The translations under genes and the position numbers were made by a program. A stretch of 64,000 bases of DNA from an uncultured Chloroflexia bacterium. Its GTDB lineage: Bacteria; Chloroflexota; Limnocylindria; Limnocylindrales; CSP1-4. The notes beneath the pieces were generated by a model. That model ran no database searches. It had not been told where the DNA came from and saw only the letters and a program-made list of their open reading frames with translations. The DNA lies in NCBI GenBank assembly GCA_963746845.1, contig CAVVCZ010000004.1, positions 192,001 to 256,000 of the forward strand, written 5' to 3'. Shown piece after piece: positions 55,767-59,486 of this stretch (its first letter is position 1; each line of letters starts with the position of its first letter).

Positions 55767-56798
55767 CTACGCAGCCGCCGGTTCGTCGGTGGGCGACGCC
55801 GGTGTGCCCGCCCGGCCGGTCCGTCCCACGGGCTCCGCGGCCGGATGCTCCACCGACGGCATCCGGCTCCGCGCCAGGATGATCAGGGCCACACCGGCGA
55901 CGATGACGCCGCCCGCGACGAGCTGGACCGGCGACACGGACTCGGCAAGGATCAGCCAGCCGAGGAACACGGCGATCACCGGGTTGACGAACGCGTAGGT
56001 CGCGATCAGCGGCAGCGGCGCGTGCCGGAGCACCCAGGCGTAGGCGGTGAACGCGATCAGGCTGCCGACCGCGAAGAGATAGACGAACGCGGCGATCGAG
56101 GCGCCCGAGACGTCGGCCGGGTGGAAGGTCGCGAGCTCGCCCGACAGGACCGACACGATCGCGAGCACGAGGCTGCCCGACAGCATCTGCATGCCGGTCG
56201 TGACGAACGGGTCGCGCGGGAGGCGGGCGCGGTGCGCCGAGAACAGCGAGCCCGTGGACCAGGCGATCGGCGAGAGGATGAGGGCGGCCACGCCGGCCGG
56301 GTTGAGCGAGCCGTCGATCGCGATCCCGTGGCCGACCAGCAGGGCGACGCCGAACATGCCGGTGGCGATCCCGACGATCGCGACGCCGGGCAGCCGTTCG
56401 CCGAGGAAGACCCGCCCGAGCACGGCGATCCAGACCGGCATCATCGCGATCAGGACACCGGCGATCCCTGACGGGACCGTCTGCTCGCCCCAGGCGACCA
56501 GCCCCATGCCGCCGCCCATCAGGAGAGCGCCGATGATGAAGCTGTCGCGCCACTCGCGGCGGCTCGGCATGGGCACCTGGCCGCGCCGCAGGATCGCGAC
56601 GGCGGCGAGCATGACCGTTCCCGCGATCGCGAACCGGGCCGCCGCCATGACGAACGGGGGGATCGTCTCGATCGCGACCCGGATCCCGAGGTACGTCGAC
56701 CCCCAGACGACGTACAGGATCAGGATCGCGGTCCAGACGAGCACCGGCGACGCCGCGGTCCGGGGCAGGCTCACGCCGACGTCGGCCGTGGTTGGCAT
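55767..56798 (-). CDS. EamA/DMT family transporter
   Basis: YVVWGSTYLGIR, TYAFVNPVIAV, about 10 TMs. Confidence 0.93.
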   Translation of the reverse strand: MPTTADVGVSLPRTAASPVLVWTAILILYVVWGSTYLGIRVAIETIPPFVMAAARFAIAGTVMLAAVAILRRGQVPMPSRREWRDSFIIGALLMGGGMGLVAWGEQTVPSGIAGVLIAMMPVWIAVLGRVFLGERLPGVAIVGIATGMFGVALLVGHGIAIDGSLNPAGVAALILSPIAWSTGSLFSAHRARLPRDPFVTTGMQMLSGSLVLAIVSVLSGELATFHPADVSGASIAAFVYLFAVGSLIAFTAYAWVLRHAPLPLIATYAFVNPVIAVFLGWLILAESVSPVQLVAGGVIVAGVALIILARSRMPSVEHPAAEPVGRTGRAGTPASPTDEPAAA

Positions 56799-56876
56799 AG
56801 TCGGCTGGTCCAAAGTACGAGGAGTGTACGACGCCCGCGCCGACAGCGCTACCCCCGTCTCGACCCGACTGCGTTC

Positions 56877-56989
56877 GTCGCGCCCGGGCGTCGAGGGCAA
56901 GGCGGAGCCGAGCACCGGAGCGAGCGGGCTTGAAGGCCCGTGAGCGAGGAGCAGAGGCTCCAACGCAGCCATCGGCGTTCGGGCGCGAC
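56877..56989 (+). repeat. structured REP/MITE-like palindromic element
   Basis: 18-bp outer stem fully paired with G-U on the + strand; inner GGAGCC/GGCTCC and CGGGC/GCCCG stems. Confidence 0.55.
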
Positions 56990-56994
56990 AGCCT

Positions 56995-57795
56995 TCAGGC
57001 GACGGCGATGTTCCCGATCGGGCGGCAGTGGAGACACGGGCGGTAGCCGGCAGAGGATGCCGCCTTCGCCGATCCGAACGTCACGAGGTGGCGCTCCGTG
57101 ACCCGTCGCGCATCGCGGCAGGTCGGCATGCAGTAGATGCGCGTCGTGTCCGAGCCGAAGTAGCGGATCCCGGCCCGCGCCAGCGTCTCGAGCTCGTCCG
57201 GATCGGCGCCCTCCTCGGCGAGGATCGTCCGCTTGTTGTCCGGCCCGCCGAGCGAGTACTGGCCGATCGTCCCGTCGCTCCGCACGACGCGATGGCAGGG
57301 CACGATCAGCGGCACCGGGTTGTGGCCCAGCGCCGTTCCGACGGCCCGGACCGCCTTCGGTCGCCCGATCTCGGCGGCGATCCAGCCGTACGGCCGGACC
57401 TCCCCACGCGGAATCTCGAGCGCCTTCATCCAGACCGCCCGCTCGAACTCGGTCGAGCCGCGCAGGTCGAGGTCGATCCGGTTGTGTCGGTCGCCCGCCA
57501 GCCGTCGCCCGATCTTCCGGGCGAGGTCGTCCGGCAGCGTGTCGCGCCGGCGGGCGACGCGGCCCGTCCGGGCGTGGAAGCGGGTCTCGAAGGCCGCATC
57601 GTCGACCGCCTCCTCGACCGCGGACACGCCCCGGGCGTTCCAGGCCACGCGGAGCGGGCCGACGGGCGAGTCCATGACGGCATAGTCGTCCGCCAGGCCG
57701 ACCGCGACCAGCGTCGCGTGGGCGAGGCCCGGAGGTGCCGGCTCGCGGAGGCCGGCGAGCGAGGCCTCCAGCGTGGGTTCGTAGGTGTCGGTCAT
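56995..57795 (-). CDS. ogt: methylated-DNA-protein-cysteine methyltransferase fused to a C-terminal Ada Zn-binding domain
   Basis: RAVGTA..NPVPLIVPCHRV active site; C-terminal IYCMPTC...GYRPCLHCRP. Confidence 0.93.
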   Translation of the reverse strand: MTDTYEPTLEASLAGLREPAPPGLAHATLVAVGLADDYAVMDSPVGPLRVAWNARGVSAVEEAVDDAAFETRFHARTGRVARRRDTLPDDLARKIGRRLAGDRHNRIDLDLRGSTEFERAVWMKALEIPRGEVRPYGWIAAEIGRPKAVRAVGTALGHNPVPLIVPCHRVVRSDGTIGQYSLGGPDNKRTILAEEGADPDELETLARAGIRYFGSDTTRIYCMPTCRDARRVTERHLVTFGSAKAASSAGYRPCLHCRPIGNIAVA

Positions 57796-58364
57796 GCGGG
57801 GATCTCCTCGCGCTCGTGCCGCTCGGCGGCGAGGAGCGCTGTGCGCAGGGCGGCCAGTCCGCGGTGGACATGGGCCTTGACGGTGCCCTCGGGCCGGCCG
57901 GTCGCCTCGGCGATCTCGGCGTACGACAGCCCGTCGACGTGGCGGAGGACGACGGCCGTCCGCTGGGCCGGACTCAGACCGGCGAGCAGACGTGCCCAGG
58001 TCTCCCGTGCGTCGCGACGGGTGAGCGGGTCGTCGATGGGCTCGGCGCCGGGATCGAAGGCCAGCTCGGTGGTCGGAACCCGCCGGACGCGGGCGCGGTT
58101 GCGGCCGGCGTTCAGCAGGATCGTGGTGAGCCAGCCGCGGAGGCGCAGCTCGCGGATCCGGGCCGGCGGGTACGTGGCGAGCGCTCGGTAGGCCCGGACG
58201 AAGCAGTCCTGGACGAGATCCTCCGCCTCCTGCCGATCCCCGCCGGTCCGCCAGGCGATCGTGAAGAGGCGGTCCTGGTGGGCGAGCACGAGCGCCTCGA
58301 ACGCCCCGTCGAGGTCGGTCGCGAGACGAGCGGCGAGCGGTGCATCCGCTGTGGGTTCGTGCAT
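57792..58364 (-). CDS. ECF-family sigma factor
   Basis: AFEALV, EAEDLVQDCF, LRGWLTTI, GTVKAHVHRG; ATGA overlap with ogt. Confidence 0.92.
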   Translation of the reverse strand: MHEPTADAPLAARLATDLDGAFEALVLAHQDRLFTIAWRTGGDRQEAEDLVQDCFVRAYRALATYPPARIRELRLRGWLTTILLNAGRNRARVRRVPTTELAFDPGAEPIDDPLTRRDARETWARLLAGLSPAQRTAVVLRHVDGLSYAEIAEATGRPEGTVKAHVHRGLAALRTALLAAERHEREEIPA

Positions 58365-58372
58365 CACATCCG

Positions 58373-58403
58373 ATTCAACACCCCCGTCCGACCCGGAGTT
58401 GCA
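58373..58403 (-). promoter_or_regulatory. ECF-type promoter upstream of the sigma-ogt operon
   Basis: Minus strand TGCAAC-N17-TGTTGAAT, 8 nt before the ATG. Confidence 0.6.
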
Positions 58404-58460
58404 CCCCGGCGACGCCGTCCGTCCGCCGAGAGCGGCATCCGTGCATGGCACAATCGGCCG

Positions 58461-59486
58461 ATGGGGCGAGCCGATCGGTTCGAGCTGCTGGCGGCGTCGG
58501 TCGCGGGGTTCTACGAGAGCTGGGCCATCTACCTCGGCCTGGAGCTCGGGCTGTTCGCCGCGATCGGTGATGCGGGGCCCGCGGGCATCGCGCCCGATGC
58601 GCTCGCGACCGCGACCGGTTGCCGGCCGGAGCCGGTCCGGGCGTGGGTCCGGGCGGCCCATGCCGCCGACCTCGTCATCCTCGACGGGGATCGGGTCCGG
58701 CTCCAGGACGACGTCGTCTCGGTGCTGCTCGACGACACGCACCCGGAGTTCCTCGGCGGCCAGTTCGTCGTGGCCGTCGTGTCGAGCCTCGACTACGCCG
58801 GTCTGGCCGAGTTCTTCCGGACCGGCCGGACGACGGGCGAGCGGCCGCCGCGCTTCCATCGGGCCATCGAATCGGTCACCGTCCAGGACATCGCGGTCTT
58901 CTTCCAGGAGGGCCTCGCCCAGCTCCCGGAGCTCGTCGCGACGCTCAGCCGGGGCGCTCGGGTCCTCGACGTCGCGTGCGGCGGCGGCAAGTGGCTGATC
59001 GCGATCGCCCGGCGCTTCCCGGCGACCGAGCTGGTCGGCGTGGAGTACGAGCCGGACTCGGTCGCGCGGGCGATGCGCCACGTGAGCGAGACCGGGCTCG
59101 GGCCACGGATCCGGATCGAGCCGCGGACGATCCCGGACATGCCGTTCCGTGAGCAGTTCGAGCTCGTCTACCTGCAGGACGCGCTCCACGAGCTGCCCGA
59201 GCCAGTCGAGTCGCTCCGGGCGTCATGGACGGCGGTCGCGCCCGGCGGCACGCTCGTCGTCCTCGAATGGTGCCTGCCGGAGGACACGGCGGACGGCCAG
59301 ACGCTCCAGGCCCAGCTCCTCTGGGGGATCCACATCGACGAGCTGTACCAGGGGACCCGGATGGAGACCCATTCCGGGTTCGCCCGGATGTTCGCCGCCG
59401 CCGGCGTCCCGGCGCCGACCGTCATCGACCTGCTGTCGGGCGCGACCCTGTTCGTCGCTCAGCGCGACGGCGGATCACCGCGCTGA
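58461..59486 (+). CDS. class I SAM-dependent methyltransferase with N-terminal wHTH
   Basis: GLELGLFAAI N-terminus, VLDVACGGG, DALHE. Confidence 0.9.
   Translation: MGRADRFELLAASVAGFYESWAIYLGLELGLFAAIGDAGPAGIAPDALATATGCRPEPVRAWVRAAHAADLVILDGDRVRLQDDVVSVLLDDTHPEFLGGQFVVAVVSSLDYAGLAEFFRTGRTTGERPPRFHRAIESVTVQDIAVFFQEGLAQLPELVATLSRGARVLDVACGGGKWLIAIARRFPATELVGVEYEPDSVARAMRHVSETGLGPRIRIEPRTIPDMPFREQFELVYLQDALHELPEPVESLRASWTAVAPGGTLVVLEWCLPEDTADGQTLQAQLLWGIHIDELYQGTRMETHSGFARMFAAAGVPAPTVIDLLSGATLFVAQRDGGSPR

Follow-up and report, generated by a model that had tools for sequence, protein, structure and literature searches.

A sigma factor gene coupled to an Ogt-AdaZn repair gene in Limnocylindrales: a candidate sigma/anti-sigma switch for alkylation damage

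What is a sigma factor doing in front of a DNA-repair protein that is predicted to take methyl groups onto its own cysteines? The question is raised by a gene pair on the minus strand of the window analysed here, a stretch of 64,000 nucleotides (nt) from an uncultured Chloroflexia bacterium of the order Limnocylindrales (contig CAVVCZ010000004.1, positions 192,001 to 256,000). One gene encodes an extracytoplasmic function (ECF) sigma factor, the other a protein, termed Ogt-AdaZn, that joins an Ogt-type alkyltransferase to a zinc domain of the Ada type. What is understood of the adaptive response to alkylation comes from Ada, an AraC-type activator that is switched on by methylation; to our knowledge, many phyla are without Ada. 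A sequence-only reading of the locus had proposed that the repair protein is itself a soluble anti-sigma factor and that self-methylation releases the sigma factor. It looked to a complex prediction, a survey of the gene pair and its promoter, and a genome scan for promoter sites, and would have taken an N-terminal extension equally present in ogt genes without a sigma neighbour as speaking against the idea. Our analysis leans towards the same overall picture: the locus is probably, though by no means assuredly, a sigma/anti-sigma switch whose anti-sigma factor is a suicide alkylation-repair protein. The anti-sigma reading of Ogt-AdaZn is well supported by computation, and a methylation trigger is plausible.

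The sigma factor, Ogt-AdaZn and its N-terminal head

The sigma protein (P0001) is an ECF (group 4) sigma-70 factor that consists of regions 2 and 4 only. Sigma70_r2 spans residues 25-94 (7e-14) and Sigma70_r4_2 residues 124-173 (2e-18), with no further substantial Pfam match, and the NCBIfam model TIGR02937 (sigma70-ECF) scores 75.8 bits against a cut-off of 42.9. The stop codon TGA of its gene (57794-57792) and the ATG of the Ogt-AdaZn gene (57795-57793) overlap in the tetranucleotide ATGA (57795-57792), and a GAGGAG sequence lies 8 nt upstream of this ATG.

Ogt-AdaZn comprises three parts, an N-terminal extension, an alkyltransferase and a zinc domain. The DNA_binding_1 domain (PF01035) covers residues 116-196 (E = 4e-31; TIGR00589, 97 bits) and bears the active site P166-C167-H168-R169; together with the preceding N-terminal domain, these features identify an O6-alkylguanine-DNA alkyltransferase (Ogt/AGT), which is predicted to accept methyl groups. 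Solved Ogt and Ada-C structures cover the protein only from residue 33-38 onwards (4bhb residues 4-153 against 38-195; 1sfe against 33-196), so the extension of about 35 residues, hereafter the head, is genuine. The C-terminal zinc domain has four cysteines, C222, C226, C254 and C257, which fall on Cys38, Cys42, Cys69 and Cys72 of Ada (1adn residues 28-74 against 212-259). The protein ends only seven residues past this domain, and no helix-turn-helix (HTH) family was found in it in Pfam even at E ≤ 1. The sequence-only reading had described just this arrangement, an ATGA-coupled ECF sigma factor and a PCHR alkyltransferase with a C-terminal four-cysteine Ada module and no AraC-type HTH, and sequence, Pfam and structure alignment bear it out, including the reversed domain order relative to Ada and the sigma factor in place of the HTH as output. 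Across an alignment of 50 sequences (59-83% identity), C167, C222, C226 and C257 never vary, and at least 90% of the sequences retain C254. The AlphaFold2 model built from these 50 relatives has a mean predicted local distance difference test (pLDDT) of 90.7 and a predicted template modelling score (pTM) of 0.82. The genome (G000, 3.56 Mb) contains a single PF02805 match, that of Ogt-AdaZn; thus, no canonical Ada or AdaA was found in it.

The head gives no match to any family, is free of cysteine and varies in length among the 50 sequences; A20 and P21 do not vary at all in it, and L16, L29, L34 and A35 hardly do. Searched against 1.84 billion protein representatives, a profile of these 50 relatives gave 579 matches at E ≤ 1e-30. 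In eight of 25 longer relatives scanned, Pfam finds the anti-sigma family zf-HC2 at residues 3-38 with a score that reaches its cut-off, followed in seven of the eight by Ogt and AdaZn. In a joint alignment, head residues 9-36 align just C-terminal to the H-x3-C-x2-C motif of relatives bearing a class I zinc-binding anti-sigma (ZAS) domain (P0193, P0197, P0224 and others), with which they share the motif L..L..LR..AP..L...V. Moreover, the 50-relative profile aligns to the ZAS-bearing proteins from their residue 41-52 onwards. Because residues 9-36 align after the zinc finger of these relatives, the alignments identify the head as the C-terminal portion of a class I anti-sigma domain whose zinc finger has been lost, in agreement with the earlier impression of a tail of anti-sigma domains.

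The head goes together with a neighbouring sigma gene. One genome per species was scanned for relatives of Ogt-AdaZn (60-88% identity), and each of the 80 related loci has a sigma homologue immediately upstream in the same orientation. When each start was set at the candidate closest to its aligned position, 72 of 79 pairs showed an overlap of exactly 4 nt. All 80 loci carry titles of the Chloroflexota, the Candidatus Limnocylindrales type or the like; L009 (82% identity) and L043 (65%) stand in bins titled Verrucomicrobiia and Dormiibacterota, probably through mis-binning or mislabelling. Among metagenome loci with at least 650 nt of upstream DNA, a sigma gene is adjacent in 51 of 52, that is, in 17 of 18 with the ZAS motif and in 34 of 34 without it. 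The genome's remaining two ogt paralogues, whose nearest sigma-like open reading frames (ORFs) lie ~100 kb and ~12.5 kb away, have no extension. Likewise, in a Tsukamurella operon of the order ogt-sigma-ogt-2-oxoglutarate (2OG) oxygenase-alkB, only the ogt that follows the sigma gene is extended. In these few comparisons, then, the extension was absent from ogt genes that do not follow a sigma gene, and the condition that the sequence-only reading had set against itself comes out in its favour. The Tsukamurella operon, with its alkB, and P0307 are sigma-linked relatives that lack AdaZn and retain the head and Ogt, for which reason the Ogt domain is the candidate for a common sensor and AdaZn for an added one.

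Two natural in-frame fusions of sigma factor, head, Ogt and AdaZn were found, P0130 (494 residues) and an annotated Streptomyces plasmid protein (448 residues), and lend independent support to binding between the sigma factor and the head. Most of the other long database entries (P0123, P0124 and P0134) are frameshift-ridden single sequences and were not counted as fusions. Several such apparent sigma-Ogt fusions are frameshift read-throughs, probably assembly errors at or near the ATGA junction, and the sigma gene itself is split by frameshifts in the related assemblies L002, L025 and L045.

A complex model of the sigma factor, Ogt-AdaZn and zinc gave an interaction score (ipSAE, interaction prediction score from aligned errors) of 0.80 (0.81, 0.80 and 0.80 in the separate runs; 0.00 for the best of three controls). 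In the calibration, 116 of 157 solved complexes attained this value, as did 2 of 215 mismatched pairs. The calibration does not extend to our own alignments and the zinc ion carried along in the model, and resemblance to solved sigma/anti-sigma complexes may account for the score. At least 91% of the contacts are common to the runs, and the partner pLDDT is at least 87. Confident contacts are confined to residues 9-35 of Ogt-AdaZn and to residues 19-60 (region 2) and 120-177 (region 4) of the sigma factor, so that the head is predicted to sit between the two regions in the wedge geometry of an anti-sigma factor and to hold the sigma factor there. The modelled interface coincides with conserved residues on both sides (F22, V26, D31 and R32 of the sigma factor; A20, P21 and L29 of the head). 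In these models the proposal that the repair protein acts as an anti-sigma factor is supported for the head, which is the only part that touches the sigma factor.

An ordinary repair operon driven by a sigma factor is the obvious alternative. The sigma factor would then be controlled elsewhere, through its transcription or by another partner, and Ogt-AdaZn would be only a bifunctional repair enzyme with a vestigial extension. A head devoid of the zinc finger and half the size of a normal anti-sigma domain fits such a view, and so do the catalogue entries for the ECF groups ECF122 and ECF203 (PMC7826278), which give no anti-sigma factor for either and suggest a TetR regulator for ECF203. We nevertheless find this alternative quite unlikely: two head residues are invariant, the complex score stands at 0.80 versus 0.00 for the controls, in-frame fusions exist, the 4-nt overlap is kept in most pairs, and the extension goes with the place directly behind a sigma gene, being absent in paralogues located elsewhere.

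A second alternative is that Ogt-AdaZn is a positive partner, as Ada is, and that methylated AdaZn binds the sigma factor or promoter DNA and activates transcription. The textbook case is E. coli Ada, which becomes an activator when its homologous zinc domain is methylated, and the sigma factor could supply the DNA-reading part that Ogt-AdaZn is missing. Against this, the modelled contact is anti-sigma-like and runs through the head rather than AdaZn, relatives bear a bona fide ZAS anti-sigma motif, and some sigma-linked relatives have no AdaZn at all; we regard a positive role as very improbable.

Promoter and predicted regulon

The sigma gene is preceded by the ECF-type promoter P1 (Table 1), whose TGCAAC-N17-TGTT pattern the sequence-only reading had recognised. 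It had placed the motif 8 nt before the sigma start; the actual distance from the end of P1 is 12 nt to the ATG and 9 nt to an in-frame GTG. A script found the last GCAAC followed after exactly 17 nt by [T/G]GTT in 76 of 77 upstream regions of related loci, and in the remaining one (L050) the motif was located by eye further upstream. As the 17-nt spacing is invariant in these 76 regions, P1 is more than a chance match. In the related loci the start codon follows the GTT by ~10-12 nt, and the sigma transcripts would therefore be nearly leaderless. A scan of the minus strand for sigma-70 consensus promoters and terminators yielded nothing useful and no terminator-like site.

The pattern GCAAC-N17-[TG]GTT occurs 13 times on the two strands of the 3.56-Mb genome, compared with ~25 occurrences expected from base composition, and is thus not enriched. 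When the sites were ranked with a weight matrix made from the 76 promoters, the top five comprised P1, a site inside the sigma gene, and sites before an alkA-like gene, a stand-alone ogt and a second EamA transporter gene. These last three sites lie 3 nt before the ORF of a 219-residue HhH-GPD (AlkA-like) glycosylase, 4 nt before the 180-residue stand-alone ogt paralogue and 78 nt before the EamA gene. The genome scan that had been envisaged hence returned sites in front of repair genes, without overall enrichment and with a reach limited to the genus, as discussed below. In a genome of the same genus (G030), TGCAAC-N17-KGTT occurs four times, and three of the four sites lie 3, 7 and 79 nt before the alkA, ogt and eamA orthologues (L106, L103 and L100). 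Their positions are conserved, and the alkA and ogt spacers have diverged with both boxes kept.

The motif inside the sigma ORF reads GCAAC-N17-GGTT. Of 79 related sigma ORFs, 12 have it at the corresponding place (ORF nt 262-271), and every one of these belongs to the closest clade (L001-L011 and L040). GCAAC and GTT, the latter a rare Val codon, are fixed in these ORFs, and the codons of the spacer vary. The motif may be an internal promoter from which ogt would be transcribed without full-length sigma factor; extra repair/anti-sigma protein per sigma factor would suit a regulator that is consumed.

How methylation might release the sigma factor

In the mechanism that we propose, the sigma factor and Ogt-AdaZn would be made together from one nearly leaderless, self-activated transcript, with translation coupled through the ATGA overlap. 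Residues 9-35 of Ogt-AdaZn, the ZAS-type remnant, would lodge between regions 2 and 4 of the sigma factor and prevent it from joining RNA polymerase. Upon methylating damage, Cys167 would irreversibly accept methyl groups from O6-methylguanine or O4-methylthymine, and those of methylphosphotriesters would probably go to Cys222. Methyl transfer to Cys167, and perhaps to Cys222, would inactivate the anti-sigma factor: the alkylation-induced loss of contact between the N- and C-terminal domains, and of stability, would undo or destroy the sigma-binding head, with unfolding, proteolysis and DNA capture as candidate routes of release. The freed sigma factor would transcribe its own operon (sigma, ogt-adaZn and probably eamA) and, within the genus, the alkA-like glycosylase, the stand-alone ogt and the second EamA transporter. 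Once the damage is gone, fresh unmethylated Ogt-AdaZn would re-capture the sigma factor. According to two papers on alkylated AGT (PMC10779285; PMC4605297), alkylation destabilises the fold and breaks the contact between its N- and C-terminal domains. Since alkylated AGTs lose this contact and the N-terminal domain carries the head, release by destabilisation is plausible.

Besides the two cautions attached to the complex score, several observations weigh against this mechanism. Ogt-AdaZn of the window itself (P0002) has no match to an anti-sigma family in Pfam at E ≤ 1, zf-HC2 included. A class I domain is defined by the H-x3-C-x2-C zinc motif within about 80-90 residues and four helices; the window head has neither the motif nor the four-helix domain, its two short helices standing without the classical zinc finger. 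The Ogt and AdaZn domains make no confident contact with the sigma factor in the complex model, so that the path from methylation to release is invisible in the models. On the side of the regulon, the alkA homologues of five more distant genomes (L089-L093) have no motif, the only credible sites of the exact pattern in G034 and G036 are those in front of their own sigma genes, and the exact-pattern scan of G012 gave no credible site. In addition, most of the 20 small genomes that belong to the order's second family have no alkA homologue. As the distant alkA genes are without the motif and G034 and G036 have it at the sigma gene only, regulation beyond self-activation is limited to the genus; judged from these sites, the wider regulon is a genus-level feature and self-activation an order-wide one.

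The same silence of the models bears on a further explanation, in which the head does hold the sigma factor and the signal is something other than self-methylation, for example general thiol or electrophile stress on the Cys4-zinc site, regulated proteolysis, or titration. The repair domains would then merely be delivered along with the regulator, and the thiol variant would resemble the redox-sensing ZAS proteins. A methyl-acceptor domain without confident contact to the sigma factor agrees with this, and the relatives alternate between a zinc-finger head and a truncated one, so the sensing site may have moved in evolution. On the other hand, alkA and ogt make the predicted regulon one of alkylation repair, the two acceptor cysteines are kept, and P0307 and the Tsukamurella operon keep the head and Ogt even without AdaZn. 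We consider a signal of this kind unlikely, if still credible.

Returning to self-methylation, the pieces can be joined into a broader picture, which we hold to be just as apt to prove wrong in some part as to prove right throughout. The alkyltransferase would be a consumable anti-sigma factor, the signal being the stoichiometric and irreversible use of a repair protein. With its two acceptor cysteines, a single molecule would report methylation both of bases and of the DNA backbone. In the closest clade, transcription by the sigma factor from a promoter within its own gene would yield additional anti-sigma/repair protein. Chloroflexota, Actinomycetota and other phyla would have this system in place of Ada as their adaptive response, and the heads would range from a full zinc-finger domain through the two-helix remnant to a covalent fusion.

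Locus context and comparison with known systems

The coordinates of the locus and of the predicted regulon are collected in Table 1. The neighbours of the gene pair are an EamA transporter gene, a divergent S-adenosylmethionine (SAM) methyltransferase gene and a cupredoxin gene. The EamA gene is probably the third gene of the operon. Most of 79 related loci have an EamA homologue downstream in the same orientation; it was scored within 700 nt in 45 of them, and some further loci were mislabelled owing to stop-to-stop ORF limits.

Table 1. Features of the sigma/ogt-adaZn locus and predicted regulon members elsewhere in the genome
Feature	Coordinates	Strand	Details	Basis
EamA/DMT (drug/metabolite transporter) gene	55767-56972	minus	22 nt downstream of the Ogt-AdaZn gene	Pfam EamA, 5e-36
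Gene of putative anti-sigma remnant, Ogt and Ada-Zn	56995-57795	minus	266 residues (P0002)	Pfam, NCBIfam, structure alignment
Ada-type zinc domain	57019-57162	minus	residues 212-259	Pfam PF02805 Ada_Zn_binding, 6.8e-12
Cys167 codon	57295-57297	minus	predicted PCHR methyl acceptor of the alkyltransferase domain	sequence; invariant in alignments A1, A3 and A5
N-terminal extension (head)	57691-57795	minus	residues 1-35; helices 7-14 and 24-31	AlphaFold2 model
ECF sigma factor gene	57792-58364	minus	190 residues, sigma regions 2 and 4 only	Pfam, NCBIfam
Second GCAAC-N17-GGTT motif, inside the sigma ORF	58077-58102	minus	candidate internal promoter	genome scan hit C4(-)250102
ECF-type promoter P1	58377-58403	minus	TGCAAC 58403-58398, 17 nt, TGTT 58380-58377	
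Divergent SAM-methyltransferase gene	58461-59486	plus		
alkA-like glycosylase	G000:C8:31149-31834	plus	outside the window	
Stand-alone ogt	G000:C4:1168019-1168591	minus	outside the window	
Second EamA transporter	G000:C7:67818-68884	plus	outside the window	

Two side observations concern the surroundings. In the upstream regions of many related loci, a GATTGTCGCA(C/T)G-like sequence lies beside the start of the SAM-methyltransferase gene (58440-58463 on the plus strand of the window). Read on the strand of that gene it is TGCGACAAT, ~7 nt 5' of the ATG, and looks like the extended -10 element of a leaderless SAM-methyltransferase transcript. For its 3.56 Mb, the genome as a whole is rich in ECF-type sigma factors, with ~36 ORFs matching P0001 at E ≤ 1e-5.

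The locus can be placed among several known systems. Class I ZAS (zf-HC2) anti-sigma factors, such as RsrA of Streptomyces with its sigma factor SigR, are cytoplasmic proteins encoded at position +1 that lie between sigma regions 2 and 4; those of the RsrA type are inactivated by covalent chemistry on their own cysteines. Ogt-AdaZn shares with them the +1 gene and the modelled position between the two regions, and its relatives include zf-HC2 carriers. It differs in that the head has ~30 residues, two helices and no zinc finger, and in that the reactive cysteines would lie in the fused repair domains, their modification being an irreversible methyl transfer from DNA. Because this transfer is irreversible, each Ogt-AdaZn molecule would signal only once.

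E. coli Ada (1adn/1u8b, 1sfe) holds the same two suicide methyl-acceptor modules in one protein. By alignment, C222 corresponds to Cys38 of Ada and PCHR to the active site of Ada-C; the operon, like that of Ada, would be self-induced, and alkA belongs to the predicted regulon. In the window protein, by contrast, Ogt comes first and the zinc domain last, no AraC-type HTH follows, and a distinct protein, the ECF sigma factor, provides the output. Whereas an activator is created in the case of Ada, the logic proposed here is that an inhibition is relieved.

The gene pairing as such is already known. The ECF classification of Casas-Pastor et al. (2021, Nucleic Acids Research; PMC7826278) describes ECF122, in its group entry, with a methyltransferase at +1, "no putative AS factors" (AS, anti-sigma) and a distribution of 100% Actinobacteria. 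The entry for ECF203 records a methylguanine methyltransferase at +1, Ada_Zn_binding in the genomic context, 100% Actinobacteria, no identified anti-sigma factor and a mechanism listed as unknown. The corresponding section of a review (PMC8999054) likewise places ECF122 under unknown mechanism. The window sigma factor resembles both groups in the methylguanine methyltransferase gene at +1, and ECF203 also in Ada_Zn_binding, a likeness judged by group descriptions and pairwise identities. It departs from them in taxonomic range, since the window locus and the 80 related loci are titled as Chloroflexota/Limnocylindrales. Its promoter is TGCAAC-N17-TGTT, whereas the catalogue entries give CTCAC/CGTCTAC for ECF122 and "not conserved" for ECF203 (PMC7826278). 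The neighbours differ as well, with EamA and the divergent SAM methyltransferase here and TetR and major facilitator superfamily (MFS) genes in the ECF203 entry; neither a TetR nor an MFS gene was found at the window locus. Finally, where the catalogue sees no anti-sigma factor, we read the Ogt protein as one.

Matching actinobacterial loci exist on Rubrobacter and Streptomyces plasmids, with the sigma gene followed by Ogt-AdaZn, and in the Tsukamurella operon described above. The window sigma factor shares 46% identity with that of a Streptomyces plasmid and 41% with that of Rubrobacter, both linked to Ogt-AdaZn, and 29% with that of Tsukamurella. On the Streptomyces plasmids L109, L111 and L112, clusters of the order SARP (Streptomyces antibiotic regulatory protein)-sigma-Ogt-AdaZn-Ogt stand beside metF, and in L109 also beside metH, both genes of the methionine methyl cycle. 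The Ogt domain of these plasmid copies gives a weak score (~40 bits), with PCHR kept.

ECF sigma factors with fused regulatory extensions are mentioned in the review cited above (PMC8999054). P0130 and the 448-residue Streptomyces protein are like these in placing the regulator in cis, whereas the sigma factor and Ogt-AdaZn of the window are separate proteins joined only by translational coupling. Beyond the catalogue and the review, our literature search found no mechanistic or experimental study of the sigma-Ogt pairing, although the supplementary tables of the catalogue could list more, and the word "sigma" is absent from a 2023 review of the AGT family (PMC10779285).

Altogether, the locus is best read as an ECF sigma/anti-sigma pair whose input would be novel and, at the same time, as an Ada-like adaptive response with a different output. 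If the proposed switch is real, it supplies a mechanism for an ECF group that is widespread and uncharacterised, and irreversible methyl transfer from damaged DNA becomes a new input for a class of anti-sigma factors. The instability known of alkylated alkyltransferases would then serve regulation. With two proteins and one promoter, the system is small; it is testable in vitro and could serve as a compact sensor of methylating agents.

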